Below, piece after piece: positions 5,620 through 59,185 of a stretch of 64,000 bases of DNA. The notes below the pieces were generated by a model that saw only the letters and a list, made by a program, of their open reading frames with translations, did not search any database and had not been told where the DNA came from. The DNA comes from Escherichia coli (GTDB taxonomy: Bacteria; Pseudomonadota; Gammaproteobacteria; Enterobacterales; Enterobacteriaceae): the NCBI RefSeq assembly GCF_045037415.1, contig NZ_CP173438.1; one strand, given 5' to 3'. Made by a program: the position numbers and the translations under genes. Each line of letters opens with the position of its first letter. The first letter of the stretch is position 1.

Positions 5620-5916
5620 TTAGCGATGATGTTTGTCAGGCCCCGGACGATGATCGCCACGATGATCATTGTGCTTGTTATGGCGCGGCGATGGCGGCGG
5701 TCCATATGGGTGCCAGCGATTGCCTCGCCATTCATAATGTTGTTTCCACCAGCCGTGGTCGCGCCAGTGACCGCCATCCCAGTAATAGCCACGATTATCA
5801 CGATCGCCTATCTGTAATTTTACTGACGGGACTAGCGTAATTTCCGCAGCCTGCGCTGCCATGGGAGCGAACAGAACCAGGGAAAGTGCGAGTACGATAG
5901 ATTGCATCTTTTTCAC
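5620..5916 (-). CDS. yaaX: Small secreted His/Trp/Arg-rich protein YaaX (DUF2502), 98 aa with signal peptide
   Basis: ORF 5620..5916; N-terminal signal peptide ending AQAAE; low-complexity basic/aromatic tail; synteny downstream of thrC. Confidence 0.85.
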
Positions 5917-19044: not shown

Positions 19045-19584
<540 letters not shown>

Positions 19585-19587
19585 TTA

Positions 19588-19658
19588 GGCGTTCACGCCG
19601 CATCCGGCATTCGGTGCACGATGCCTGATGCGACGCTGACGCATCTTATCAGGCCTAC
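19588..19658. repeat. REP/BIME element (two inverted REP units) in yjjX-trpR intergenic region
   Basis: Contains cgccgcatccggca and gatgcctgatgcgacgc..atcaggcctac, matching the REP consensus seen elsewhere in the window. Confidence 0.75.
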
Positions 19659-20078: not shown

Positions 20079-22016
20079 TCAGTAACGACGTCCCCATTCC
20101 GTGGCGCTCATCAACGTCGGTTTATCCCCCATGAAATAGCGGTAGTAAGCGTCATAAGCCAGCACGTTTTTCACATAACCGCGCGTCTCGGAGAATGGAA
20201 TACTCTCGACAAATGCCACTGCGTCGATACGCCCTGCGCTGTTGCCAAGCCAGGTCCGCACCCGCCCTGGTCCGGCGTTATAAGCTGCTGAGGAGAAAAT
20301 ACGGTTATTGCCAAACTGCTGATAAACATATTGCAGGTAACTGGTGCCAATGTTGATGTTCGTTTCCGGATCCAGCAATTGCCCAGGGCTGCTATAACCG
20401 GGAATAGAGAACATCTTCACCGTATGGGTCGCGGTACCAGGCATAATCTGCATCAGGCCGCTGGCCCCTACCGGTGATTTCACTTTCGGATTCCAGGCAC
20501 TCTCCTGACGAGCAATCGCCATCGCATAGCTTTGCGGGATCTCCTTACCACTGGTGTAGCGTTTGAAAAGATCGTTGTAAGCCAGCGGGAATCGCTCTTC
20601 CAGATGATCCCACAGCTTCCCGGCGATCGTTGCCTGAACGCTAAGATCCCACCATTGGTTATTGAAAGCATACCGAGCCAGTTGAGCCTGCTCTGTTTTT
20701 GACTTGCTCTTCACCAGATTGGCCCACTCGCTACGCGCGGTGTTATCGAGATTCCAGTACATCAACTCGCGCACGCGCGCCATCTCCGGCCCCTGAGTCA
20801 GGGCGCTGTCAACATTCTGCGGCGCTTTATCAATCTTCAGCTCATACTCTTCGCCGATGCGTTGTGCAGCAACCATCGGGTAGAAACCACGCTGTTGCAT
20901 GAGTTGATGCAAAATCTCTTTTGCTTCAGCTTCACGTCCGCGTTCCAGCAGTAAATCCGCCTGCCAGTAACGCCATTCATCTTTCTCTTTCGCTTCCATA
21001 GGCAGACGCGCCAGCCAGGTATTCAGGCCGCGACGATCGCCGGTGCCAAGCGCCATTCGCACACGGCGTTCAATAAGCGAAGTAGATTGCGAGCGCATAA
21101 TCGCGTCATCGCGCCATTTCGCCTGCTCGTCGGTGACATCGTTGCCCATCAAACGCCAGGCGACAATATCGCGCAGCTCCTGAATCTGATCTTCATTAAG
21201 CTGCTGTGCCTGAGCAAGCGACGGGATCATCAGCCGTGCATTTTCAGCATCCTGCCGCGCCACACTGGCAAACGCCACCGCCGCCATTTGACGGGTAAAA
21301 TCGGTCGCGCCGGTTGTACGCGCGAAGGTCAGTACCGTATTAGGGTTGTTCGCCAGTGAAATGATTGCCGAAGCGATAGTCTGGTAATCGGCAGGCATCT
21401 GCCCTGCCAGCACTGTTACCAGGCCGGTGTTACCCGCTTTCATCGCCAGACGGATACGCTCTAAATACGCCAGCGGATCTTGTTTACCTGACGCACGCCA
21501 GACGCTAAATAACTTGTCACAGGCGTTAGGCTGGCTCTTGCCGGTTAGCCACAGCTCTTTCGCCCCTTGCCAGGCTTCTTCACTCTGCCCGGTGTTCCAT
21601 TTCGCATAGTAGTAATTACATTGCGCTTCGGTAGTTCCGGGCTTTTCCGGGCTAAAGGCTAACAAGCCACGCCAGTCTTCACGCCGCGCCAGTTCATTGA
21701 CGAAACGAGATTGCAGCGTGCGAGCGGGAGGAAGCGTGGGGTTAGCGCGAACAAAGTTAGTGACCGTCACCGCCGGTTGATTCATCAGGTCATCAGTGAT
21801 CTGGCGGTATTCCAGGTAGGGATAAAGTGGGTAATCTTTCAGTCCAGGCATCATTTGTTCGACCACATCCATTTGTCGATTATCCCAGGCCTGCTTAATT
21901 TGCGCGTAACGGCTACGCTGCTCATCCAGTGAGTCGGCTCGCGCCACGCTGCTGACCGTCAGCAGACAGACACCGGCAGCCAACAGCCGCCAGGTAACGT
22001 GTTTGGCTTTTTCCAC
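20079..22016 (-). CDS. slt: Soluble lytic murein transglycosylase Slt70, 645 aa, GTG start (MEKAKHVTWR), signal peptide
   Basis: ORF 20079..22046; GTG at 22014-22016 preceded by GAGGAT SD; catalytic motif ESAWNPKVKSPVGASGLMQIMP. Confidence 0.93.
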   Translation of the reverse strand: MEKAKHVTWRLLAAGVCLLTVSSVARADSLDEQRSRYAQIKQAWDNRQMDVVEQMMPGLKDYPLYPYLEYRQITDDLMNQPAVTVTNFVRANPTLPPARTLQSRFVNELARREDWRGLLAFSPEKPGTTEAQCNYYYAKWNTGQSEEAWQGAKELWLTGKSQPNACDKLFSVWRASGKQDPLAYLERIRLAMKAGNTGLVTVLAGQMPADYQTIASAIISLANNPNTVLTFARTTGATDFTRQMAAVAFASVARQDAENARLMIPSLAQAQQLNEDQIQELRDIVAWRLMGNDVTDEQAKWRDDAIMRSQSTSLIERRVRMALGTGDRRGLNTWLARLPMEAKEKDEWRYWQADLLLERGREAEAKEILHQLMQQRGFYPMVAAQRIGEEYELKIDKAPQNVDSALTQGPEMARVRELMYWNLDNTARSEWANLVKSKSKTEQAQLARYAFNNQWWDLSVQATIAGKLWDHLEERFPLAYNDLFKRYTSGKEIPQSYAMAIARQESAWNPKVKSPVGASGLMQIMPGTATHTVKMFSIPGYSSPGQLLDPETNINIGTSYLQYVYQQFGNNRIFSSAAYNAGPGRVRTWLGNSAGRIDAVAFVESIPFSETRGYVKNVLAYDAYYRYFMGDKPTLMSATEWGRRY

Positions 22017-22222
22017 AAGCGCATCCTCTAAGTGTAAATACATCAATGCAGCGTCATGCCGCGTAATAGATTTATGCTAACCAGTCATTGCCGTTTACGC
22101 CACGTTACGGACACTTTTTTACTTTTACGGGGTGATCGACTGGCTGGGATTAGACAGGGAAACAGGCTACACTTCGCCTTTGAAAACTCATCATCACGAT
22201 AAACATAGAGGCGAAGTCCAAC

Positions 22223-23890
22223 GTGGCTCAATTCGTTTATACCATGCATCGTGTCGGCAAAGTTGTTCCGCCGAAACGTCATATTTTGAAAAACATCTCT
22301 CTGAGTTTCTTCCCTGGGGCAAAAATTGGTGTCCTGGGTCTGAACGGCGCGGGTAAGTCCACCCTGCTGCGCATTATGGCGGGCATTGATAAAGACATCG
22401 AAGGTGAAGCGCGTCCGCAGCCAGACATCAAGATTGGTTATCTGCCGCAGGAACCGCAGCTGAACCCGGAACACACCGTTCGTGAGTCCATTGAAGAAGC
22501 GGTTTCTGAAGTGGTTAACGCCCTGAAACGCCTGGATGAAGTGTATGCGCTGTATGCCGATCCGGATGCCGATTTTGACAAGCTGGCCGCTGAACAAGGC
22601 CGTCTGGAAGAGATCATTCAGGCTCACGACGGTCACAACCTGAACGTTCAGCTGGAGCGTGCGGCGGATGCGCTGCGTCTGCCGGACTGGGATGCGAAAA
22701 TCGCTAACCTTTCCGGTGGTGAGCGTCGTCGCGTGGCGTTGTGCCGCCTGCTGCTGGAAAAACCAGACATGCTGCTGCTCGACGAACCGACCAACCACCT
22801 GGATGCGGAATCCGTAGCGTGGCTGGAGCGCTTCCTGCACGACTTCGAAGGCACCGTGGTGGCGATTACCCACGACCGTTACTTCCTCGATAACGTTGCG
22901 GGCTGGATCCTCGAACTTGACCGCGGTGAAGGTATTCCGTGGGAAGGTAACTACTCCTCCTGGCTGGAGCAGAAAGATCAGCGTCTGGCGCAGGAAGCTT
23001 CACAAGAAGCGGCGCGTCGTAAGTCGATCGAGAAAGAGCTGGAGTGGGTACGTCAGGGAACTAAAGGCCGTCAGTCAAAAGGTAAAGCACGTCTGGCGCG
23101 CTTTGAAGAACTCAACAGCACCGAATATCAGAAACGTAACGAAACCAACGAACTGTTTATTCCACCTGGACCGCGTCTGGGCGATAAAGTGCTGGAAGTC
23201 AGCAACCTGCGTAAATCCTATGGTGATCGTCTGCTGATTGACTCCCTGAGCTTCTCGATCCCGAAAGGAGCGATCGTCGGGATCATCGGTCCGAACGGTG
23301 CGGGTAAATCGACGCTGTTCCGTATGATCTCTGGTCAGGAACAGCCGGACAGCGGCACCATCACTTTGGGTGAAACAGTGAAACTGGCGTCGGTTGATCA
23401 GTTCCGTGACTCAATGGATAACAGCAAAACCGTTTGGGAAGAAGTTTCCGGCGGGCTGGATATCATGAAGATCGGCAACACCGAGATGCCGAGCCGCGCC
23501 TACGTTGGCCGCTTTAACTTTAAAGGGGTTGATCAGGGTAAACGCGTTGGCGAACTCTCCGGCGGTGAGCGCGGTCGTCTGCATCTGGCGAAGCTGCTGC
23601 AGGTTGGCGGCAACATGCTGCTGCTCGACGAACCAACCAACGACCTGGATATCGAAACCCTGCGCGCGCTGGAAAACGCCCTGCTGGAGTTCCCGGGCTG
23701 CGCGATGGTTATCTCGCACGACCGTTGGTTCCTCGACCGTATCGCCACGCACATTCTGGATTACCAGGATGAAGGTAAAGTTGAGTTCTTCGAAGGTAAC
23801 TTTACCGAGTACGAAGAGTACAAGAAACGCACGCTGGGCGCAGACGCGCTGGAGCCGAAGCGTATCAAGTACAAGCGTATTGCGAAGTAA
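22223..23890 (+). CDS. ettA: ABC-F translation factor EttA (energy-dependent translational throttle), 555 aa
   Basis: ORF 22223..23890; two ABC cassettes (GLNGAGKSTLLRIMAG and GPNGAGKSTLFRMISG) with no TM domain. Confidence 0.95.
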   Translation: MAQFVYTMHRVGKVVPPKRHILKNISLSFFPGAKIGVLGLNGAGKSTLLRIMAGIDKDIEGEARPQPDIKIGYLPQEPQLNPEHTVRESIEEAVSEVVNALKRLDEVYALYADPDADFDKLAAEQGRLEEIIQAHDGHNLNVQLERAADALRLPDWDAKIANLSGGERRRVALCRLLLEKPDMLLLDEPTNHLDAESVAWLERFLHDFEGTVVAITHDRYFLDNVAGWILELDRGEGIPWEGNYSSWLEQKDQRLAQEASQEAARRKSIEKELEWVRQGTKGRQSKGKARLARFEELNSTEYQKRNETNELFIPPGPRLGDKVLEVSNLRKSYGDRLLIDSLSFSIPKGAIVGIIGPNGAGKSTLFRMISGQEQPDSGTITLGETVKLASVDQFRDSMDNSKTVWEEVSGGLDIMKIGNTEMPSRAYVGRFNFKGVDQGKRVGELSGGERGRLHLAKLLQVGGNMLLLDEPTNDLDIETLRALENALLEFPGCAMVISHDRWFLDRIATHILDYQDEGKVEFFEGNFTEYEEYKKRTLGADALEPKRIKYKRIAK

Positions 23891-25263: not shown

Positions 25264-26646
25264 TTATAAGTCGTCGAACACGCTAAGCGCGTCGGAGAGT
25301 TTTTTAACGCCAAAAATCTGCATCCCTTCCGGCGTTTTTTTCGGCACGTTAGCCGCCGGAACAATCGCCCGGCGAAAACCGTGTTTCGCCGCTTCTGAGA
25401 TTCGTTCCTGGCCGCTGGGCACCGGGCGGATCTCCCCTGCCAGCCCGACTTCACCAAACACCACCAGATCCTGCGGTAGCGGTCTGTCACGCAGGCTGGA
25501 AACCATCGCCAGCAGTAACGCTAAATCGGCACTGGTTTCCGTCACCTTCACGCCACCGACCACGTTAACAAACACATCCTGATCGGCCATTTGTAGACCA
25601 CCGTGACGGTGAAGCACCGCCAGCAGGATTGCCAGACGGTTTTGCTCCAGCCCGACTGCCACGCGGCGTGGATTCGCCATCATCGAGTGATCGACGAGCG
25701 CCTGAATCTCCACCAGCAGCGGACGCGTTCCTTCCCACACTACCATCACTGAGCTACCGGAGGTCACTTCATCGCCGCGACTTAAGAAAATTGCCGAAGG
25801 GTTGCTGACTTCACGCAGCCCCTGCTCGGTCATTGCAAAGACACCCAGCTCATTCACCGCGCCGAAGCGGTTTTTATGGCTGCGTAAGGTGCGAAAACGG
25901 GAGTCGGCATCGCCATCCAAAAGCACCGAACAGTCGATACAGTGTTCCAGCACTTTAGGGCCAGCCAGCGAGCCATCTTTGGTTACGTGCCCAACCATGA
26001 CAATCGCCACACCGCGCGTTTTGGCGAAGCGCGTCAGATAAGCCGCCGTTTCACGCACCTGTGCCACGCTGCCAGGCGATGATTGTACATCCGCCATATG
26101 CATCACCTGGATGGAGTCAATTACCATCAGCTTCGGTTGCTCTTCTTCGGCAATCAGGCAGATCTGCTCGATGCTGGTTTCCGACAGCATATTAAGATTG
26201 TCAGTCGGCAGGCCAAGGCGATGAGCGCGCATTGCCACCTGTTGCAGCGACTCTTCGCCGGTGACATACAGCGTTTTCATCTGCTGCGCCAGTTTGCACA
26301 GCGTTTGCAGCAACAGCGTGGATTTCCCCGCACCAGGGTTACCGCCAATCAGAATGGCGCTTCCCGGCACCACGCCGCCGCCTAATACGCGGTCGAACTC
26401 TTTAAATCCGGTGGAAAAACGCGGCAGCTCTTCAAGGCTGATGTCGGAAAGTTTCTGGACTTTTGCCACTCCGGCGCTACCGGCATAGCCACTGAGACGC
26501 TCGTTACGCGCCACCGTTGGCGACGCTGCAAGACGCACCTCGGTGATGGTGTTCCAGGCATGACAGGCACTGCACTGCCCCTGCCAGCGCGGATAATCGG
26601 CCCCGCATTCATTACAAACAAAGGCGCGTTTTGGAGCTTTTGCCAC
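25264..26646 (-). CDS. radA: DNA repair protein RadA/Sms, 460 aa, GTG start
   Basis: ORF 25264..26694; zinc finger CNECGADYPRWQGQCSAC, Walker A GGNPGAGKST, KNRFG motif, Lon-like C-terminus; GTG at 26644-26646. Confidence 0.93.
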   Translation of the reverse strand: MAKAPKRAFVCNECGADYPRWQGQCSACHAWNTITEVRLAASPTVARNERLSGYAGSAGVAKVQKLSDISLEELPRFSTGFKEFDRVLGGGVVPGSAILIGGNPGAGKSTLLLQTLCKLAQQMKTLYVTGEESLQQVAMRAHRLGLPTDNLNMLSETSIEQICLIAEEEQPKLMVIDSIQVMHMADVQSSPGSVAQVRETAAYLTRFAKTRGVAIVMVGHVTKDGSLAGPKVLEHCIDCSVLLDGDADSRFRTLRSHKNRFGAVNELGVFAMTEQGLREVSNPSAIFLSRGDEVTSGSSVMVVWEGTRPLLVEIQALVDHSMMANPRRVAVGLEQNRLAILLAVLHRHGGLQMADQDVFVNVVGGVKVTETSADLALLLAMVSSLRDRPLPQDLVVFGEVGLAGEIRPVPSGQERISEAAKHGFRRAIVPAANVPKKTPEGMQIFGVKKLSDALSVFDDL

Positions 26647-26694
26647 GATGTACCTCGTTAATGCTGTGCCGCCCGCAGGATGACGGGCGGACAA

Positions 26695-33006: not shown

Positions 33007-34329
33007 TTATTCGCTGATGCGGCGATAGACAGTTGGTGTGCTTTCCGGTGCTTTATCGGCAAGTTTAATTGCCGCTTTCACCGCTTTCGCCGCTTCCTGC
33101 CAGCTGTTTTCGTCTTTCGCGTGGATAACTGCCAGCGGACGCTGACCGTCTACCTGGTCGCCCAGACGCGCCATATCAGTAAAGCCGACGCTGTAATCGA
33201 TGGTGTCAGATGCCTGACGGCGTCCGCCGCCCATTGCAACCACTGCCATCCCCAGTGCGCGGGTATCCATTTCACTGACAAACCCTTCGGTATCAGCATA
33301 GACTGCTTTCGTCAGCATCGCTGTCGGCAGATACTTCGCGTAGTTCTCAACGAAGTCGGTCGGGCCTTTTTGTGCCGCGACCATACGACCAAAGACTTCT
33401 GCCGCTTTACCGTTGTCCAGCACCGCCTGCAATTTCGCGCGCGCTTCGGCGTCATTTTTCGCCAGTTTGCCGGAGATCAGCATCTCCACGCACAGTGCCA
33501 TCGTGACATCAAACAGACGCGGGTTACGATGTTCACCCGTCAGGAACTGCACCGCTTCACGAACTTCAACCGCGTTACCTGCACTGGAGGCCAGTACCTG
33601 ATTCATATCGGTGAGCAGCGCGGTGGTGCGCACGCCAGCGCCGTTAGCCACGCCAACAATCGCTTCGGCAAGGGCTTCAGAGAGTTCGTAGGTCGGCATA
33701 AACGCGCCGCTACCCACTTTCACGTCCATCACCAGCGCGTCCAGACCTTCCGCCAGTTTCTTCGCCAGAATAGAGGCGGTGATCAGCGGGATTGAATCCA
33801 CGGTTGCGGTAATATCGCGGGTCGCGTAGAAACGTTTATCCGCCGGAGCCAGTGAGCTGGTCTGGCCGATAATCGCCACGCCGACGTCTTTAATAATTTC
33901 GCGGAAACGGTTGTCATCCGGGAAAATGTCGAAGCCAGGGATGGATTCCAGTTTGTCGAGCGTACCGCCAGTATGACCGAGGCCGCGACCGGAGATCATC
34001 GGAATATAGCCGCCACAGGCAGCGACCATTGGCCCCAACATCAGCGAAGTCACATCGCCGACACCGCCGGTCGAGTGTTTATCAACAATCGGGCCATTCA
34101 GATGCAGGCTTTTCCAGTCGAGAACGGTTCCTGAATCTCGCATCGCCATGGTCAGCGAGACACGCTCAGGCATTGTCATATCGTGGAAGAAAATGGTCAT
34201 CGCGAGGGCGGCAATCTGCCCTTCGGAGATAGTGTTGTCGCGAATGCCGTTGATAAAGAAACGAATTTCTTCATCACTCAGCGCATGACCATCACGTTTT
34301 TTACGAATAATTTCTTGTGCGAGAAACAA
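33007..34329 (-). CDS. deoA: Thymidine phosphorylase DeoA, 440 aa (start [14 protein letters not shown])
   Basis: ORF 33007..34398; motif KHSTGGVGD. Confidence 0.96.
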
Positions 34330-37831: not shown

Positions 37832-38335
37832 TGCCGGATACGGCCTACGGTTCGGCACAGACTTGTAGGCATGATAAGACGCGACAAGCGTCGCATCAGG
37901 CATTATGCGCCGACTGCCGGATGCGGCGTGAACGCCTTATCCGGCCTACGGTTCGGCACAGACTTGTAGGCATGATAAGACGCGTCAGCGTCGCATCAGG
38001 CATTGTGCGCCAACTGCCGGATGCGGCGTGAACGCCTTATCCGGCCTACGGTTCGGCACAGACTTGTAGGCATGATAAGACGCGTCAAGCGTCGCATCAG
38101 GCATTGTGCGCCAACTGCCGGATGCGGCGTGAACGCCTTATCCGGCCTACGGTTCGGCACAAACCTGTAGGCATGATAAGACGCGTCAAGCGTCGCATCA
38201 GGCATTGTGCGCCAACTGCCGGATGCGGCGTGAACGCCTTATCCGGCCTACGGTTCGGCACAAACCTGTAGGCATGATAAGACGCGACAAGCGTCGCATC
38301 AGGCATTATGCGCCGACTGCCGGATGCTGCCTACG
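37832..38335. repeat. BIME/REP tandem array: about 5 copies of a 100-101 bp unit, each built from two inverted REP sequences
   Basis: Direct repetition of gccggatgcggcgtgaacgccttatccggcctacggttcggcaca(g/a)ac(t/c)tgtaggcatgataagacgcg(a/t)caagcgtcgcatcaggcatt(g/a)tgcgcc with period 100-101 bp between convergent yjjW and yjjV. Confidence 0.9.
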
Positions 38336-38344
38336 AAGGGTAAA

Positions 38345-39127
38345 CTACCCACTAACGCTAAACAACGCATACGTATTATTAAGCAACACTTCGGCAATCT
38401 CATCTTCTGGTTCCGGGCGCAACTCGCAAAGCACGTCAAACACCCGCACAGCCTGTTCCGGTCGGTTAGGCTGCCCCTGAAAGCCGTTGAGCGGCATATC
38501 CGGCGCGTCGGTTTCCAGCAACAACGATGCCAGCGGTAATTTTGCGATGACATCGCGGGTTTTACTGGCGCGTGGATAGGTGATAGTACCGCCTACGCCG
38601 ATTTTGTAGCCCAGCTGTACAAACCGCTCGGCCTGTTGCAGGCTGCCGGAAAAACCGTGAACCACGCCAGTGCACGGTAAATCGTGACGTTTAAGATGCA
38701 TCGCCAGTTTGTCGTGTGTACGCCGGGAATGAAGGATCACCGGCAGATCGTAGCGTTTCGCCAGTTTCAGCTGTTCGTCGAGTAACCACTGCTGCCTCTC
38801 AAATTGCGGATCGTCGCCGAAGAGATCCAGACCGATCTCCCCCACCGCCACCACCTTCGCCGGACGCCTTTCCAGCGCCTGCTGTAGCTGATCAAGAGAC
38901 ACATCGCTATGTTTTTCCAACATCCCCGGATGCAACCCCAATGCGGCATACAGCGGTTGATATTTTTCCGCTAACGCCTGCACGCGGGCAAAATTTTCCG
39001 CCTCTGTCGCCGGAACAATGATCTTGCCTACGCCCGCTTGTGCCGCGCGTTGCAGGCTGGCCTCTTCATCGCCACTAAACGGCGGGAAATCAAAATGGCA
39101 GTGGGTATCGATAAAACGGCAAATCAA
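38345..39127 (-). CDS. yjjV: TatD-family metal-dependent DNase/hydrolase YjjV, 260 aa
   Basis: ORF 38345..39127; MICRFIDTHCHFDF TatD signature. Confidence 0.9.
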   Translation of the reverse strand: MICRFIDTHCHFDFPPFSGDEEASLQRAAQAGVGKIIVPATEAENFARVQALAEKYQPLYAALGLHPGMLEKHSDVSLDQLQQALERRPAKVVAVGEIGLDLFGDDPQFERQQWLLDEQLKLAKRYDLPVILHSRRTHDKLAMHLKRHDLPCTGVVHGFSGSLQQAERFVQLGYKIGVGGTITYPRASKTRDVIAKLPLASLLLETDAPDMPLNGFQGQPNRPEQAVRVFDVLCELRPEPEDEIAEVLLNNTYALFSVSG

Positions 39128-40197
39128 GCCAGATCCTCATTGTTAAATGTCGGGTCGTTCGCCTGCGGAGCATCGCTCACTTCGGCAACCAGCGTATCGT
39201 TGGCGACTGGCGCAGGCGGAATAACGATCGATTCCGGCGTCACCACTGGCACCAGATGGCAGGTAAGCGGCGCTTTTTCAGTTAATAGCTTGCCAACCGT
39301 GGCGAGGAAATAACGACCGCATAAACGCCCAAGTTTATAGTCTTCACGCAGCGCCGGAATCCGACTGCCAAGCGCGATACTATGTAATGGCTTCGGTGGA
39401 TAAATTTCGAATATCCGCAGCTTGCCCGGTGGTTTCTCAATAAATTGCTGAATGTCACGATAGCTGGTTTCATGATGCTGCACCAGATTGACCAGCGGCT
39501 GCAGGCTACTGTCACCCAGCCAGCGTTCCATGCGTTTGAACCACTGCGGCGTGTAGTACATTTGTGACGGCACAGTGCGGATGACGACCAACGTTTTAGC
39601 GCCCTGCCTTGCCGCCTCTTTAACCGGAATCGCATCACTGATCCCGCCATCCAGGTAGTTAATGCCTTCCAGCGACACTCCGCTACGATAAAAGCCAGGT
39701 ATCGCACTGGAGGCGCGAATCACATCCAGCCAGTTTTGTTTGGTTGGTAAAAAGTAATTAGGCGCGTAGTCATCCTGACGACAGGCGCACATATAAAACG
39801 ATTTGCCGCTGTCAAACAACCGCGCGGCGGTATCCATTTGCAACGGCATCTGGCTTGCGGTGGCCTCCACCAGCCAGTCGAGATCGATAAGATTTCCTCC
39901 ACGGACAAAGCGCAATGGATCGAAAAATTCGCGTTTTGTGGTATAGCGCATGATGACTTTGCGCGCGTAACCGGGCTGATTGCAGATAAACGCCGAGAGG
40001 TTCTGCGCCCCGGCAGATGTGCCGAGATAAAGATCGAAAGGATTAAACTGCGCGCGCATAAACTCATCCAGCACGCCAGCCGTGAAAATTCCACGCTGTC
40101 CGCCGCCTTCGCACACCAGAGCTATTCGTCCAGGCTGGAACGGCCTTAGCGACAACGGCGCAATATTACCAAGCGTTACAGGTATTCGCTGCCCCAC
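39124..40197 (-). CDS. yjjU: Patatin-like phospholipase YjjU, about 357 aa, probable GTG start
   Basis: ORF 39124..40233 opens at a TTG; GTG at 40195-40197 has AGGAAGG SD 6 nt upstream; patatin motifs GGGQRGIF and GTSAG; overlaps yjjV start by 4 nt. Confidence 0.85.
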   Translation of the reverse strand: MGQRIPVTLGNIAPLSLRPFQPGRIALVCEGGGQRGIFTAGVLDEFMRAQFNPFDLYLGTSAGAQNLSAFICNQPGYARKVIMRYTTKREFFDPLRFVRGGNLIDLDWLVEATASQMPLQMDTAARLFDSGKSFYMCACRQDDYAPNYFLPTKQNWLDVIRASSAIPGFYRSGVSLEGINYLDGGISDAIPVKEAARQGAKTLVVIRTVPSQMYYTPQWFKRMERWLGDSSLQPLVNLVQHHETSYRDIQQFIEKPPGKLRIFEIYPPKPLHSIALGSRIPALREDYKLGRLCGRYFLATVGKLLTEKAPLTCHLVPVVTPESIVIPPAPVANDTLVAEVSDAPQANDPTFNNEDLA

Positions 40198-40318
40198 CTC
40201 TGCCTTCCTGTTTTTGTTGTGAAAGAATGACAAAGTAACGCAATTTATTATTCGCTAAAACCGCAAAAGCCAGTCCGCTGGACTGGCTTTGGATAAAATT
40301 TTCTTAATGATCTGAAAT

Positions 40319-43284: not shown

Positions 43285-43962
43285 TCAGTGTTTACACAGG
43301 AGCTGCTCCAGTTCGTGCAACGAAGAAACGGTCCAGGTGGGCGCGATGCCTTCTGGTTGCTCGCGATGGTGCGCATTCAGCCAGCAGGTCGCAAGCCCGG
43401 CGTTGATGCCACCGAGAATATCGGACTCGGCAGTGTCGCCAACCATCAGCACGCGTGAACGGTCAGGATTGCCCGCCTGTTCCAGCGCATAATCGAAAAT
43501 TTTCTTATTCGGTTTGGCAACGCCAACTTCTTCGGAAATCACCAGCAAATCGAAGTAATCACGCAGGCCCGTGCGTTCCAGACGCACTTGCTGCAAGGCG
43601 CTAAAGCCGTTGGTGATGATGCCGATTTTAGCGTTGCCACGAATGGCGTTAAGCAGGGAAACCGCCCCCGGCAACGGCGTACAGATTTCCGCCATCGCAT
43701 TAATAAAGGCCTCGTTGAGTTTACCCGGTTCGACGTTCAGCCGTTCGGCCCAGCTCTCAAACCGCCCGTGCTGAAGCTGTAATGAAGTGATCACGCCGTT
43801 TTGATAATCCACCCACAGTGGCTTGTTAACGGCCTGATAGTCCTGAAAATCTTCAGCGGTAAAGGTGACGCTGTAATCAAGAAACATCCGCTGCAGGCCG
43901 GTGAATGAGTCAAAGGTAAACAGCGTTTCATCGGCATCAAAGAAAATCCAGTCCCACTTCAT
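43285..43962 (-). CDS. yjjG: HAD-family pyrimidine 5'-nucleotidase YjjG, 225 aa
   Basis: ORF 43285..43962; [17 protein letters not shown] motif I. Confidence 0.93.
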
Positions 43963-43976
43963 TATTCCACCTTGTC

Positions 43977-44423
43977 TTACATACTGATTGGTAACGCCAT
44001 GATGATGGCGTCTTCGCGACCGTCCGTGGTGGGGTAGTAATTGCGGCGAATCGTCGCCTCGTTAAAGCCTAAACTTTCGTACAGGGCAATGGCGGCAGCA
44101 TTTGAGGCACGGACTTCCAGCCATAGCGTCGCCACGCCGCGTTTTTCCAGTTCGTCGATCAGATGTTCCAGCAGCGCCCTTCCCAGTCCCTGACGCTGAT
44201 AGTCAGGATCGACCGCAATATTGAACAATGTAGCTTCATCCAGCACCACTTGCGTAATCGCAAACGCCGCCATTTTGCCGTTTTGCGTTAACTGAAAGTT
44301 GAGATAGCGCTCGCCCTGGTTGCTGGCAAAGGTTTTTTCACTCCACGGAAAGGTGTGGGCGCGTTGTTCAATGTGGAAAGCCGCTGGTAAATCAGTCGTT
44401 TCGAGGGAAGAAATCGTGTTCAT
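43977..44423 (-). CDS. rimI: Ribosomal protein S18 alanine N-acetyltransferase RimI (GNAT), 148 aa
   Basis: ORF 43977..44423; GNAT motif [13 protein letters not shown]. Confidence 0.93.
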
Positions 44424-46138: not shown

Positions 46139-46225
46139 GCGAAGGTGGCGGAATTGGTAGACGCGCTAGCTTCAGGTGTTAGTGTCCTTACGGACGTGGG
46201 GGTTCAAGTCCCCCCCCTCGCACCA
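46139..46225 (+). tRNA. leuQ: tRNA-Leu (anticodon CAG), 87 nt, copy 1
   Basis: gcgaaggtggcggaattggtagacgcg...ttcaagtcccccccctcgcacca; long variable arm; CAG in anticodon loop; encoded CCA. Confidence 0.95.
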
Positions 46226-46253
46226 AAAACCACGTTGATATTGCTCGCACTGG

Positions 46254-46340
46254 GCGAAGGTGGCGGAATTGGTAGACGCGCTAGCTTCAGGTGTTAGTGT
46301 TCTTACGGACGTGGGGGTTCAAGTCCCCCCCCTCGCACCA
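46254..46340 (+). tRNA. leuP: tRNA-Leu (anticodon CAG), 87 nt, copy 2 (one-base variant: agtgttcttacgg vs agtgtccttacgg)
   Basis: Same sequence as copy 1 except a single C to T difference in the variable arm. Confidence 0.95.
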
Positions 46341-46374
46341 AACGAGGCAATATCAAAAAAAGTAAGATGACTGT

Positions 46375-46461
46375 GCGAAGGTGGCGGAATTGGTAGACGC
46401 GCTAGCTTCAGGTGTTAGTGTCCTTACGGACGTGGGGGTTCAAGTCCCCCCCCTCGCACCA
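46375..46461 (+). tRNA. leuV: tRNA-Leu (anticodon CAG), 87 nt, copy 3
   Basis: Identical to copy 1. Confidence 0.95.
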
Positions 46462-52349: not shown

Positions 52350-52847
52350 ATGATGATGAAAACTGTTAAACATCTTCTGTGCTGTGCCATTGCCGCCAGC
52401 GCATTAATTTCCACCGGGGTGCATGCTGCGTCCTGGAAAGATGCGCTCTCCAGCGCCGCCAGCGAACTTGGCAACCAAAACAGCACGACACAGGAAGGCG
52501 GTTGGTCGCTCGCGTCATTAACTAACTTGCTTAGCAGCGGGAACCAGGCCTTAAGCGCAGATAACATGAACAACGCCGCAGGCATTCTGCAATACTGCGC
52601 GAAGCAAAAGCTGGCTTCGGTAACCGATGCCGAAAACATCAAGAACCAGGTGCTGGAAAAGCTGGGCCTGAACAGTGAAGAGCAAAAAGAAGACACCAAC
52701 TATCTGGATGGCATTCAGGGTTTGCTGAAAACCAAAGATGGTCAGCAACTCAATCTGGATAACATCGGAACGACTCCGCTGGCAGAAAAGGTGAAAACCA
52801 AAGCCTGCGATCTGGTGTTAAAGCAGGGGCTGAACTTCATTTCCTGA
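52350..52847 (+). CDS. yjjA: Periplasmic DUF2501 protein YjjA, 164-165 aa, signal peptide (three consecutive ATG codons at start)
   Basis: ORF 52350..52847; signal peptide ending GVHAAS. Confidence 0.85.
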   Translation: MMMKTVKHLLCCAIAASALISTGVHAASWKDALSSAASELGNQNSTTQEGGWSLASLTNLLSSGNQALSADNMNNAAGILQYCAKQKLASVTDAENIKNQVLEKLGLNSEEQKEDTNYLDGIQGLLKTKDGQQLNLDNIGTTPLAEKVKTKACDLVLKQGLNFIS

Positions 52848-53100
52848 ACCGCGAAACGCCGCGTTTTAGCTGTTACCCGGCTGACGCGGCTCTCTCCTGC
52901 CCTTTTCCCTGCTCCTGGACGGTTTTACCCCTGTTACACGGGAAGCGATCGCGATCAAAAAAGTCTGTTTATAAACTAATTCCTAACAACATCGCATTTT
53001 TTTGACACTAGAATTGCAGCAATATGGCGACGCCATTACATTGTGCTTCTCAAAAAGCTTAAACGTTGGCTAAACGGCCCGGTTTAGTGAGGATCGCCCG

Positions 53101-55392
53101 TTGTCAGAACTACTCTCTTTCGCCCTTTTTCTCGCCTCTGTGCTGATTTACGCATGGAAAGCGGGACGTAACACCTGGTGGTTTGCAGCCACATTAACAG
53201 TGCTGGGGCTATTTGTCGTTTTAAATATCACCCTGTTTGCCAGCGACTATTTTACTGGCGATGGTATTAACGACGCGGTTCTCTATACCTTAACCAACAG
53301 CCTGACCGGTGCTGGCGTCAGCAAATACATCCTGCCGGGTATCGGCATTGTGCTGGGGCTGACAGCGGTGTTCGGTGCGCTGGGCTGGATCCTGCGCCGT
53401 CGTCGCCATCATCCGCACCATTTTGGTTACAGCCTGCTGGCGCTCTTACTGGCGCTGGGTTCGGTGGACGCCAGCCCGGCATTTCGTCAGATAACGGAAC
53501 TGGTGAAATCCCAGTCACGCGATGGCGACCCGGACTTTGCGGCTTATTATAAAGAGCCGTCGAAAACTATCCCTGACCCGAAACTCAACCTGGTTTATAT
53601 CTATGGCGAAAGTCTCGAGCGAACCTATTTTGATAACGAGGCTTTCCCGGATCTCACGCCTGAACTGGGCGCGTTGAAAAATGAAGGCCTGGATTTCAGC
53701 CACACGCAGCAGCTGCCAGGAACGGATTACACGATTGCGGGCATGGTGGCTTCTCAGTGCGGCATACCGCTGTTTGCCCCCTTTGAAGGCAACGCCTCCG
53801 CCTCTGTCTCCAGCTTCTTCCCGCAGAACATCTGTCTGGGCGATATCCTGAAAAACTCGGGTTATCAGAACTATTTCGTGCAGGGCGCAAATCTGCGTTT
53901 TGCCGGTAAAGATGTGTTCCTGAAATCGCACGGCTTCGACCACTTATACGGCTCAGAAGAGCTGAAAAGCGTGGTAGCCGACCCGCACTATCGCAACGAC
54001 TGGGGATTCTACGACGATACCGTTCTCGATGAAGCGTGGAAAAAGTTTGAAGAGCTTTCCCGCTCAGGTCAGCGATTCTCACTGTTTACCCTGACAGTCG
54101 ATACCCATCACCCGGATGGTTTTATTTCTCGTACCTGTAACCGCAAAAAATATGATTTTGACGGTAAACCGAATCAGTCATTCAGCGCGGTAAGTTGCAG
54201 CCAGGAGAATATCGCGACGTTTATCAACAAAATCAAAGCGTCACCGTGGTTTAAAGATACTGTCATCGTCGTCTCTTCTGACCATTTAGCGATGAACAAC
54301 ACGGCGTGGAAATACCTCAATAAGCAGGATCGCAATAACCTGTTTTTTGTCATTCGTGGCGACAAGCCGCAGCAAGAGACGCTGGCAGTGAAGCGTAACA
54401 CGATGGATAACGGCGCGACGGTGCTGGACATTCTCGGTGGCGATAACTATCTCGGACTTGGTCGTAGCAGTTTATCCGGGCAGTCGATGTCGGAAATCTT
54501 CCTCAATATCAAAGAGAAAACATTGACGTGGAAGCCAGATATCATCCGCCTGTGGAAATTCCCTAAAGAGATGAAAGAGTTCACCATCGACCAGCAGAAA
54601 AACATGATTGCCTTCTCGGGTAGCCATTTCCGTTTGCCGCTGCTGTTGCGGGTTTCAGACAAACGCGTGGAACCGCTGCCGGAAAGCGAATACTCAGCAC
54701 CGCTGCGTTTCCAGCTGGCCGATTTCGCTCCACGCGACAATTTCGTCTGGGTTGACCGTTGCTATAAGATGGCACAACTCTGGGCTCCGGAACTGGCACT
54801 TTCCACCGACTGGTGTGTCTCGCAGGGGCAGCTTGGCGGTCAGCAAATTGTCCAGCATGTTGACAAAACAACATGGAAGAGCAAGACGGCATTTAAAGAT
54901 ACGGTCATCGACATGGCGCGTTACAAAGGCAATGTCGATACGCTGAAGATTGTTGATAACGATATTCGCTACAAAGCCGACAGTTTCATCTTTAACGTCG
55001 CCGGTGCGCCAGAAGAGGTGAAACAGTTTAGCGGGATTTCCCGTCCGGAGTCGTGGGGCCGCTGGTCCAACGCGCAGCTGGGCGATGAAGTAAAAATCGA
55101 GTACAAGCATCCGCTGCCGAAGAAATTTGACCTGGTGATTACCGCCAAAGCATACGGCAATAACGCCAGCCGTCCTATTCCGGTACGCGTAGGCAATGAA
55201 GAACAAACTCTTGTGCTGGGCAATGAAGTGACCACCACCACACTGCATTTCGATAACCCAACCGATGCCGACACACTGGTAATTGTGCCGCCGGAACCTG
55301 TCTCAACCAACGAAGGGAATATCCTCGGACACTCGCCGCGTAAGCTCGGGATCGGCATGGTGGAAATTAAAGTTGTGGAACGTGAAGGGTAA
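53101..55392 (+). CDS. opgB: Phosphoglycerol transferase I OpgB/MdoB (sulfatase superfamily), 763 aa, TTG start
   Basis: ORF 53101..55392 beginning at TTG ([20 protein letters not shown]); N-terminal TM segments plus periplasmic sulfatase-like domain. Confidence 0.92.
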
Positions 55393-55403
55393 TTCCTGAC
55401 TGA

Positions 55404-55434
55404 TGTGTAGGTCGCATAAGGTGCGACCTACACA
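55404..55434. terminator. Strong hairpin (gtgtaggtcgc/gcgacctacac, 11-bp stem) between convergent opgB and lgoD, followed by REP-like ccggcctac
   Basis: Perfect inverted repeat 12 nt after opgB stop. Confidence 0.6.
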
Positions 55435-55531
55435 CCTTCTCCGGCCTACAAAACATCATTGAGAAACAGAAAAAAAACAGCGCCCAACACTTCCCCGGAC
55501 GCTGCATGGCAACTTTAATAATCTCGCCTTA

Positions 55532-57607: not shown

Positions 57608-57823
57608 GTACGGATTAAAAACAGCAAACTATTAGCGGGTGCACGGTTTTATCAAAAGATAAATACCGGAAAATTCCCGCTTACCTATGCTCACAATCAG
57701 TCGACTAAAAATGTTTTTTTGTGAGCGGTAGTAAAGTCCTAAAACTTTAACCTGCCGTTAATGTCAACCTTGCGTAATGCACAATTACGTAAACAATTAA
57801 AATTATAAATACAGGAGTCCGGC

Positions 57824-59185
57824 GTGGAAAAAGAAAATATCACCCTCGATCCGCGTTCTTCATTTACTCCATCTTCGTCGGCAGATATTCCCGTGCCACC
57901 AGATGGATTAGTTCAACGCAGTACCCGAATTAAACGCATTCAAACCACCGCCATGTTGTTATTATTTTTTGCGGCGGTAATCAATTATCTCGACCGCAGT
58001 TCGCTGTCGGTAGCAAATTTAACGATTCGTGAAGAATTGGGATTAAGTGCCACCGAAATCGGCGCTTTGCTCTCCGTGTTTTCACTCGCTTACGGGATTG
58101 CGCAACTTCCTTGCGGCCCACTATTGGATCGTAAAGGCCCGCGCCTGATGTTGGGACTGGGGATGTTCTTCTGGTCACTGTTCCAGGCAATGTCTGGCAT
58201 GGTGCACAGCTTTACGCAGTTCGTGTTGGTGCGTATCGGTATGGGAATTGGTGAAGCGCCGATGAACCCATGCGGTGTAAAAGTCATTAACGACTGGTTC
58301 AACATCAAAGAGCGCGGACGCCCGATGGGCTTCTTCAACGCAGCTTCTACCATTGGCGTTGCCGTAAGCCCACCGATTCTGGCGGCGATGATGCTGGTGA
58401 TGGGCTGGCGCGGGATGTTTATTACCATTGGTGTACTGGGGATTTTTCTCGCCATCGGCTGGTATATGCTCTATCGCAACCGCGAGCACGTAGAACTGAC
58501 TGCCGTTGAACAAGCTTATCTCAATGCAGGTAGCGTCAATGCCCGCCGAGATCCGCTCAGTTTTGCCGAATGGCGCAGCTTGTTCCGTAACCGCACAATG
58601 TGGGGAATGATGCTCGGATTCAGTGGCATCAACTACACTGCGTGGCTGTATCTGGCCTGGCTTCCTGGTTACCTGCAAACAGCCTATAACCTGGATTTAA
58701 AAAGCACAGGGTTGATGGCGGCTATCCCTTTCCTGTTTGGGGCTGCCGGGATGCTGGTCAACGGTTACGTTACTGACTGGCTGGTCAAAGGGGGAATGGC
58801 TCCGATTAAAAGCCGTAAGATCTGCATTATTGCCGGGATGTTCTGTTCTGCCGCCTTTACGCTGGTCGTACCGCAAGCGACAACATCCATGACAGCGGTT
58901 CTGCTGATTGGTATGGCACTGTTCTGTATTCACTTTGCCGGAACATCCTGCTGGGGCTTGATCCACGTCGCAGTTGCTTCTCGCATGACTGCGTCGGTGG
59001 GCAGTATCCAGAACTTTGCCAGCTTCATCTGCGCCTCTTTTGCGCCGATCATTACTGGTTTTATTGTTGATACCACCCACTCATTCCGTCTGGCACTAAT
59101 CATCTGCGGTTGCGTCACCGCAGCGGGGGCACTGGCGTACATCTTCCTGGTTCGTCAGCCGATCAACGACCCACGGAAAGATTAA
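57824..59185 (+). CDS. lgoT: MFS L-galactonate:H+ symporter LgoT, 453 aa, GTG start
   Basis: ORF 57824..59185; GTG preceded by CAGGAG SD; 12-TM MFS protein. Confidence 0.9.
   Translation: MEKENITLDPRSSFTPSSSADIPVPPDGLVQRSTRIKRIQTTAMLLLFFAAVINYLDRSSLSVANLTIREELGLSATEIGALLSVFSLAYGIAQLPCGPLLDRKGPRLMLGLGMFFWSLFQAMSGMVHSFTQFVLVRIGMGIGEAPMNPCGVKVINDWFNIKERGRPMGFFNAASTIGVAVSPPILAAMMLVMGWRGMFITIGVLGIFLAIGWYMLYRNREHVELTAVEQAYLNAGSVNARRDPLSFAEWRSLFRNRTMWGMMLGFSGINYTAWLYLAWLPGYLQTAYNLDLKSTGLMAAIPFLFGAAGMLVNGYVTDWLVKGGMAPIKSRKICIIAGMFCSAAFTLVVPQATTSMTAVLLIGMALFCIHFAGTSCWGLIHVAVASRMTASVGSIQNFASFICASFAPIITGFIVDTTHSFRLALIICGCVTAAGALAYIFLVRQPINDPRKD

Follow-up and report, generated by a model that had tools for sequence, protein, structure and literature searches.

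In Escherichia coli, opgB, the gene of phosphoglycerol transferase I, appears to be translated from a TTG codon, and the genes slt, radA, yjjU and lgoT of the same chromosomal region appear to be translated from GTG codons. This raises the questions of whether ribosomes indeed start at these codons, whether the five starts belong together as a cluster, as a sequence-only reading of the region had proposed, and whether a weak start codon at opgB has been kept for a purpose. The region analyzed, here called the window, is a stretch of 64,000 nucleotides of contig NZ_CP173438.1 (assembly GCF_045037415.1).

Occurrence of non-ATG starts in the window

The window is oriented in reverse to the MG1655 chromosome and encompasses msyB, the thr operon, arcA, cre, slt, ettA, radA, deo, prfC, leuQPV, opgB, lgoT, tsr, and btsT. 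Positions 20000-44900 and 52800-55500 match several E. coli chromosomes at 100%, including those of strains E41-1 and 4/4. The annotation was taken from the RefSeq record of strain E41-1 (NZ_CP028483.1) and mapped onto the window, in which all of its complete CDSs (60/60) translate cleanly.

Several further features of the window were observed. Strain 4/1-1 (NZ_CP023844.1), otherwise identical to the window, carries a lambdoid prophage with integrase, terminase and tail genes beside yjjG, and a TIR-domain reverse-transcriptase defence gene adjoins it; the window has no prophage at the equivalent site (about 43962-44000), and yjjG runs straight to prfC. Three tRNA-Leu genes, leuQPV in K-12, are located in tandem at 46139-46458 (+), the middle copy of which has a 1-nt deletion in E41-1 compared to the window that shifts the coordinates by one. 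The Rfam family naRNA4 (CssrE) is present in four tandem copies at 37868-38248 (-) in the spacer between yjjW and yjjV, each approximately 77-79 nt long and repeated at a pitch of approximately 101 nt, and in a fifth copy at 19578-19655 (+) between yjjX and trpR. These copies look like a REP/BIME-type repeat array. In the Rfam scan of the whole window, no match coincided with or lay close to one of the five starts.

Counting the 60 complete CDSs and yjiA, the ATG start of which is inside the window, nine of 61 starts (15%) are non-ATG, i.e., six GTG and three TTG (Table 1). The sequence-only reading had listed five of these and missed yaaX, ettA, deoA and yjjV, which are also non-ATG in the annotation. 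For E. coli a background of 83% ATG, 14% GTG and 3% TTG starts was reported (10.1101/063800). Compared to the resulting 17%, nine of 61 is not an excess (binomial P(>=9) = 0.73), and the same is true if TTG is considered alone (3 of 60, P(>=3) = 0.27). Two pairs of adjacent genes both have non-ATG starts, slt/ettA and yjjV/yjjU (permutation P = 0.33), and the five flagged sites are spread over 36 kb at a density no higher than chance. A true regional enrichment, caused, for example, by a mutational bias of the region (close to the replication terminus or on the origin side) or by shared regulation, has next to nothing to recommend it: besides the existence of the two adjacent pairs, only the impression of the earlier reading points to it, while the observed 15% is slightly below the background, none of the three P values is low, and the genes have unrelated functions and belong to different transcription units, with both strands represented. 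The codons are therefore real, but, given the P values for frequency and adjacency, the proposed cluster does not go beyond chance.

Table 1. Non-ATG start codons of the window, with the Shine-Dalgarno (SD) sequences of the five genes in question; positions are those of the window and energies refer to the SD duplex.
Feature	Position	Strand	Remark
yaaX (DUF2502) GTG start	5914..5916	-	RefSeq annotation
slt GTG initiation codon (645 aa)	22014..22016	-	annotated; GTG in Citrobacter, Salmonella, Enterobacter
slt SD GAGGA	22024..22028	-	-5.8 kcal/mol vs -1.9 for upstream ATG/TTG
ettA GTG start	22223..22225	+	annotated; GTG in three other genera
radA GTG initiation codon (460 aa)	26644..26646	-	annotated; GTG in three other genera
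radA SD GAGGT	26652..26656	-	-7.3 kcal/mol; 'gaggta' kept in orthologous loci
deoA TTG start	34327..34329	-	annotated; SD GGGAGG, -11.5 kcal/mol
yjjV TTG start, 4-nt overlap with yjjU stop	39125..39127	-	annotated
yjjU GTG initiation codon (357 aa, patatin-like protein)	40195..40197	-	annotated
yjjU SD AGGAAGG	40203..40209	-	-6.5 kcal/mol vs -0.3 for upstream TTG 40233
opgB SD GAGGA, 7 nt upstream of TTG	53089..53093	+	-7.2 kcal/mol
opgB TTG initiation codon (phosphoglycerol transferase I, 763 aa)	53101..53103	+	RefSeq, K-12, conservation
lgoT SD AGGAG	57813..57817	+	-6.9 kcal/mol; kept in 17 loci
lgoT GTG initiation codon (453-aa MFS galactonate transporter)	57824..57826	+	annotated

Initiation signals of the five genes and the TTG codon of opgB

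The CDS starts of RefSeq and of K-12 MG1655 (NC_000913.3) coincide exactly with all five flagged codons, and the open reading frames counted from these codons have the lengths given in Table 1. The SD sequences were scored for all in-frame ATG, GTG and TTG codons between the upstream stop and codon +80, using the 18 nt upstream of each candidate against the 3' end of the 16S rRNA. In each of the five genes no neighboring in-frame candidate forms an anti-SD duplex as strong as that of the annotated start; the other candidates within approximately 25 codons reach only -0.3 to -4.8 kcal/mol. The gap between SD and start is 5-7 nt in all five genes and the SD core is kept in the orthologs. The annotation and the predicted N-termini of orthologs are partly gene-caller output and to that extent depend on SD or length heuristics, and conservation at the DNA level is the sole evidence that is independent of gene callers. 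At this level, a start-capable triplet is kept in 80/80 orthologous loci for opgB, in 17/17 for lgoT, in 4/4 for yjjU and in 3/3 extra genera each for slt and radA. Codon periodicity was measured at opgB only.

One could object that one or more of the five starts are misassigned and that translation truly begins at another in-frame codon. Such codons do exist, namely ATG 22043 for slt (resulting in 654 aa), GTG 53140 for opgB (750 aa), TTG 40233 for yjjU (369 aa), TTG 26694 for radA, and GTG +23 or ATG +43 for lgoT, and databases contain longer entries, i.e., a 369-aa YjjU of E. coli, a 656-aa Slt of Salmonella and 654-aa Slt proteins of Enterobacter. All of these alternatives, however, are weak in SD (-0.3 to -2.9 kcal/mol), and the evidence from the individual genes, which is discussed below, also speaks against them.

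In opgB, no start-capable codon lies between an in-frame TAA ten codons upstream (-10) and the TTG, and the candidates that follow downstream, GTG +13 (-0.3 kcal/mol) and GTG +33 (-2.7 kcal/mol), have poor SD sequences. Scanning one genome per species resulted in 80 Enterobacteriaceae loci with a full-length OpgB. At the codon orthologous to 53101, 53 of the 80 species have TTG and 27 have GTG; ATG or a non-start codon does not occur. The second and third bases of this codon are invariant in 81/81 sequences, compared to an entropy of 0.5-1.9 bits at other third positions. A fixed third base together with a first base switching between T and G would not be the behavior of an ordinary leucine or valine sense codon. 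Averaged by codon position, the entropy is 0.58/0.08/1.38 in codons 2-13 and flat in the 36 nt upstream (1.54/1.57/1.44); therefore, coding constraint begins right after the start codon, with periodicity from codon 2. Many of the 80 species have in-frame stops 1-4 codons upstream of the start. Nearly all of the 80 species retain the GAGG core of the SD, always at the same distance, with flanks and spacer sequence free to vary, and the G at -9 is invariant in 81/81 sequences. Within E. coli, an identical 60-mer centered on the TTG was found in 5340 of 5424 genomes, the remaining 84 having 1-3 mismatches, and 60-mer queries substituted with ATG or GTG had no exact match among the more than 5400 genomes. 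The GTG at 53140 was rejected as start, with an SD of only -0.3 kcal/mol and with codons 2-13, which lie upstream of it, showing coding periodicity and conserved residues.

In Citrobacter werkmanii the opgB TTG has lost one T, and together with the G in front of it the rest reads as a new in-frame GTG; the spacing from SD to start is 1 nt shorter and a start-capable triplet survived the indel. Scanning the intergenic region between yjjA and opgB for promoters and terminators revealed no consensus promoter or terminator. When the region around the opgB start (-60 to +40) was folded, no structure stood out from shuffled controls (z = +0.75), and the idea of a structured leader was dropped because of this.

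The product is in agreement with this start. OpgB is 100% identical to the RefSeq opgB product over the compared region and is built of an N-terminal membrane anchor, a periplasmic sulfatase-fold domain (Pfam Sulfatase, 163-446) and a C-terminal DUF7024 (616-759). It was reported that OpgB has three to four transmembrane segments within its first 162 residues, followed by the catalytic domain at 163-448 (PMC3818809), and the position of the Sulfatase domain fits this published numbering if counted from the TTG. Judged from their hydrophobicity, residues 2-20 would be the first membrane segment, and a start at GTG +13 would cut this segment in half. Taken together, the reported topology and the hydrophobic residues 2-20 therefore point to a membrane anchor and not to a cleaved signal peptide. 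The earlier remark that a misassigned opgB start would change the signal-peptide prediction is to be corrected in that OpgB carries an N-terminal membrane anchor and no cleavable signal peptide (PMC3818809).

Start codons of slt, radA, yjjU, lgoT and the remaining genes

The slt, radA and ettA loci of Salmonella, Citrobacter and Enterobacter were reached through Slt orthologs, so that the comparison for slt and radA covers three extra genera each; GTG is the start of each gene in every one of these genera. For slt, the 'gaggaagagctt' block ahead of the GTG is also kept in these genera. The upstream ATG 22043 (codon -9) was rejected: its SD is -1.9 kcal/mol, a stop is present at -5 in Citrobacter and no start exists upstream in Enterobacter, which means that this ATG of E. 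coli slt is not conserved. Salmonella slt does have upstream ATGs, which are used by its 656-aa database entry. Two downstream ATGs score well in SD but fall inside the mature protein. If residues are counted from the GTG, the solved mature chains of Slt70 (PDB 1QSA, 1SLY) have residue 28 as their first, which leaves a leader of 27 residues, MEKAKHVTWRLLAAGVCLLTVSSVARA. It had also been claimed that the slt start matters for the signal peptide, and for Slt this is apt.

In radA, the upstream TTG 26694 is excluded, as each of the three genera has an in-frame stop at -2, and the next candidate downstream, GTG +36, is excluded by the Zn-ribbon, which is located at residues 9-36. RadA of S. pneumoniae aligns from residue 4-5. 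The annotated ettA product has the same length as the EttA chain of PDB 4FIN (555 aa).

The yjjU start is GTG in the DNA of Klebsiella, Buttiauxella, Shimwellia and C. koseri (4/4). The patatin GGGxRG motif is present in 118 predicted YjjU orthologs, of which 105 have their first residue exactly at this codon, with (M/V)GQRIPVTLGNIAPL, and five entries print V as the first residue. Eleven predictions are longer; their extensions are mutually unrelated, also between genera, and all have V at the position of the GTG codon, where conservation starts. The N-terminally extended database entries of Slt and YjjU are probably over-extended gene calls from non-conserved upstream ATG or TTG codons. For lgoT, the 17 loci compared are those among the opgB loci that also carry lgoT. 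All of them (17/17) have GTG, 'caggagtccggc' as leader and VEKxNIT as N-terminus, and most have in-frame stops 6-9 codons upstream of the GTG. The longer N-terminal motif VEKxNITLDP is conserved from codon 1, which argues against a start further downstream.

As to the remaining non-ATG starts, the PDB chains of thymidine phosphorylase have 440 aa and align with DeoA over 1-440. As the start of yjjV, E. coli has TTG, and Klebsiella, Buttiauxella, Shimwellia and C. koseri all have GTG, the same TTG/GTG alternation as at opgB. In yaaX (5905-5916, -) an in-frame ATG is located three codons downstream of the GTG with a nearly equal SD (-8.2 vs -8.0 kcal/mol); judged from sequence alone, this start is truly ambiguous and the least certain of the nine.

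For each of the five genes, the claim that GTG or TTG is the best start agrees with the reference annotation, with SD strength and with cross-species conservation, and the plausible SD ascribed to each was borne out (-5.8 to -7.3 kcal/mol). We consider it very probable that the five starts are ordinary SD-led initiation sites at near-cognate GUG and UUG codons and independent features of unrelated genes with no functional cluster; that any of them is misassigned is very unlikely. The 30S subunit would be positioned by an SD with a GAGG/AGGA-type core 5-7 nt upstream and would initiate at the NTG, the near-cognate GUG or UUG being decoded by the initiator fMet-tRNA. In opgB, the UUG at 53101 would start the 763-aa membrane-anchored phosphoglycerol transferase I immediately before its first transmembrane helix. 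That ribosomes initiate at the annotated codons in vivo is suggested by the annotation together with the independent conservation at DNA level, and any of these genes may have a second, minor initiation site. The five starts had been put forward as inferred rather than shown, and this description still holds; neither opgB/mdoB, slt, radA, yjjU, lgoT/yjjL nor ettA occurs in the supplements on tetracycline start-site profiling (PMC4909307) or on TRAINSPOTTER N-terminomics (PMC13245402), and in these supplements no experiment was found that directly maps the initiating residue of any of the five genes. A reading of the sequence alone thus placed five non-ATG starts correctly, and these survive cross-species comparison. 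Correct starts are useful for the prediction of the signal peptide or topology of Slt and OpgB and have little importance beyond annotation quality.

Maintenance of the opgB codon and comparison with known starts

The only biological lead of the analysis is the long-kept weak start codon of opgB. Tentatively, the comparison of orthologs could be taken to mean that this start is held non-AUG by purifying selection across the Enterobacteriaceae, as a fixed limiter of how much phosphoglycerol transferase I is made, i.e., a functional setting rather than neutral drift, which could also make opgB sensitive to the discrimination of IF3 against near-cognate starts. If true, the limiter would perhaps cap diacylglycerol production or the membrane-protein load. 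No ATG was found in 80 species despite at least six inferred changes between TTG and GTG on the OpgB tree, although this count depends on a quick protein neighbor-joining tree; if ATG were equally acceptable, six changes with zero ATG would have a P of about 0.016 as a rough estimate. One of the changes from TTG to GTG, that of Citrobacter werkmanii, came about via the 1-nt deletion and still regenerated a GTG, and the otherwise identical 60-mer never has ATG in the E. coli genomes. AUG was reported to be the generally favored start under selection (PMC5622118), and the diacylglycerol formed by active OpgB is toxic to dgk strains (PMC3818809) and constitutes a plausible cost of OpgB overproduction; therefore, the weak start may be maintained to limit OpgB. 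However, the starts of lgoT, yjjU, yjjV, slt, radA and ettA are likewise non-ATG in all genera sampled. As every other non-ATG start that was compared also persists, persistence looks like the norm and opgB may not be special. On balance, selection for a limiter at opgB is possible but doubtful.

The five starts are already known and ordinary. In K-12 MG1655, opgB (b4359), slt (b4392), radA (b4389), yjjU (b4377) and lgoT (b4356) have the same start codons and the same lengths, the SD motifs match and the upstream sequences are near-identical. The differences are strain-level substitutions only, such as residue 6 of Slt, which is H in the window and Q in K-12, and residue 8 of LgoT, which is L in the window and I in K-12.

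Among the non-AUG starts that are regulatory or confirmed by experiment, the AUU start of infC plays a role in the autoregulation of IF3. This AUU start (10.1101/063800) and the experimentally confirmed UUG start of ftsH (PMC4909307) are comparable to opgB, the start of which is likewise sub-optimal and conserved in the orthologs, with UUG or GUG only in 80 species. In contrast to infC with its AUU, opgB uses a standard near-cognate codon, and no sign of feedback control or of a regulator was seen at opgB. In reporter assays GUG and UUG were shown to initiate at 10-100% of the level of AUG (10.1101/063800). Nothing sets the five starts apart from canonical GUG and UUG initiation in E. coli, which accounts for about 14% and 3% of the genes, respectively: the starts of the window show the same NTG codon with an SD at normal spacing, and they occur at the frequency of this background.
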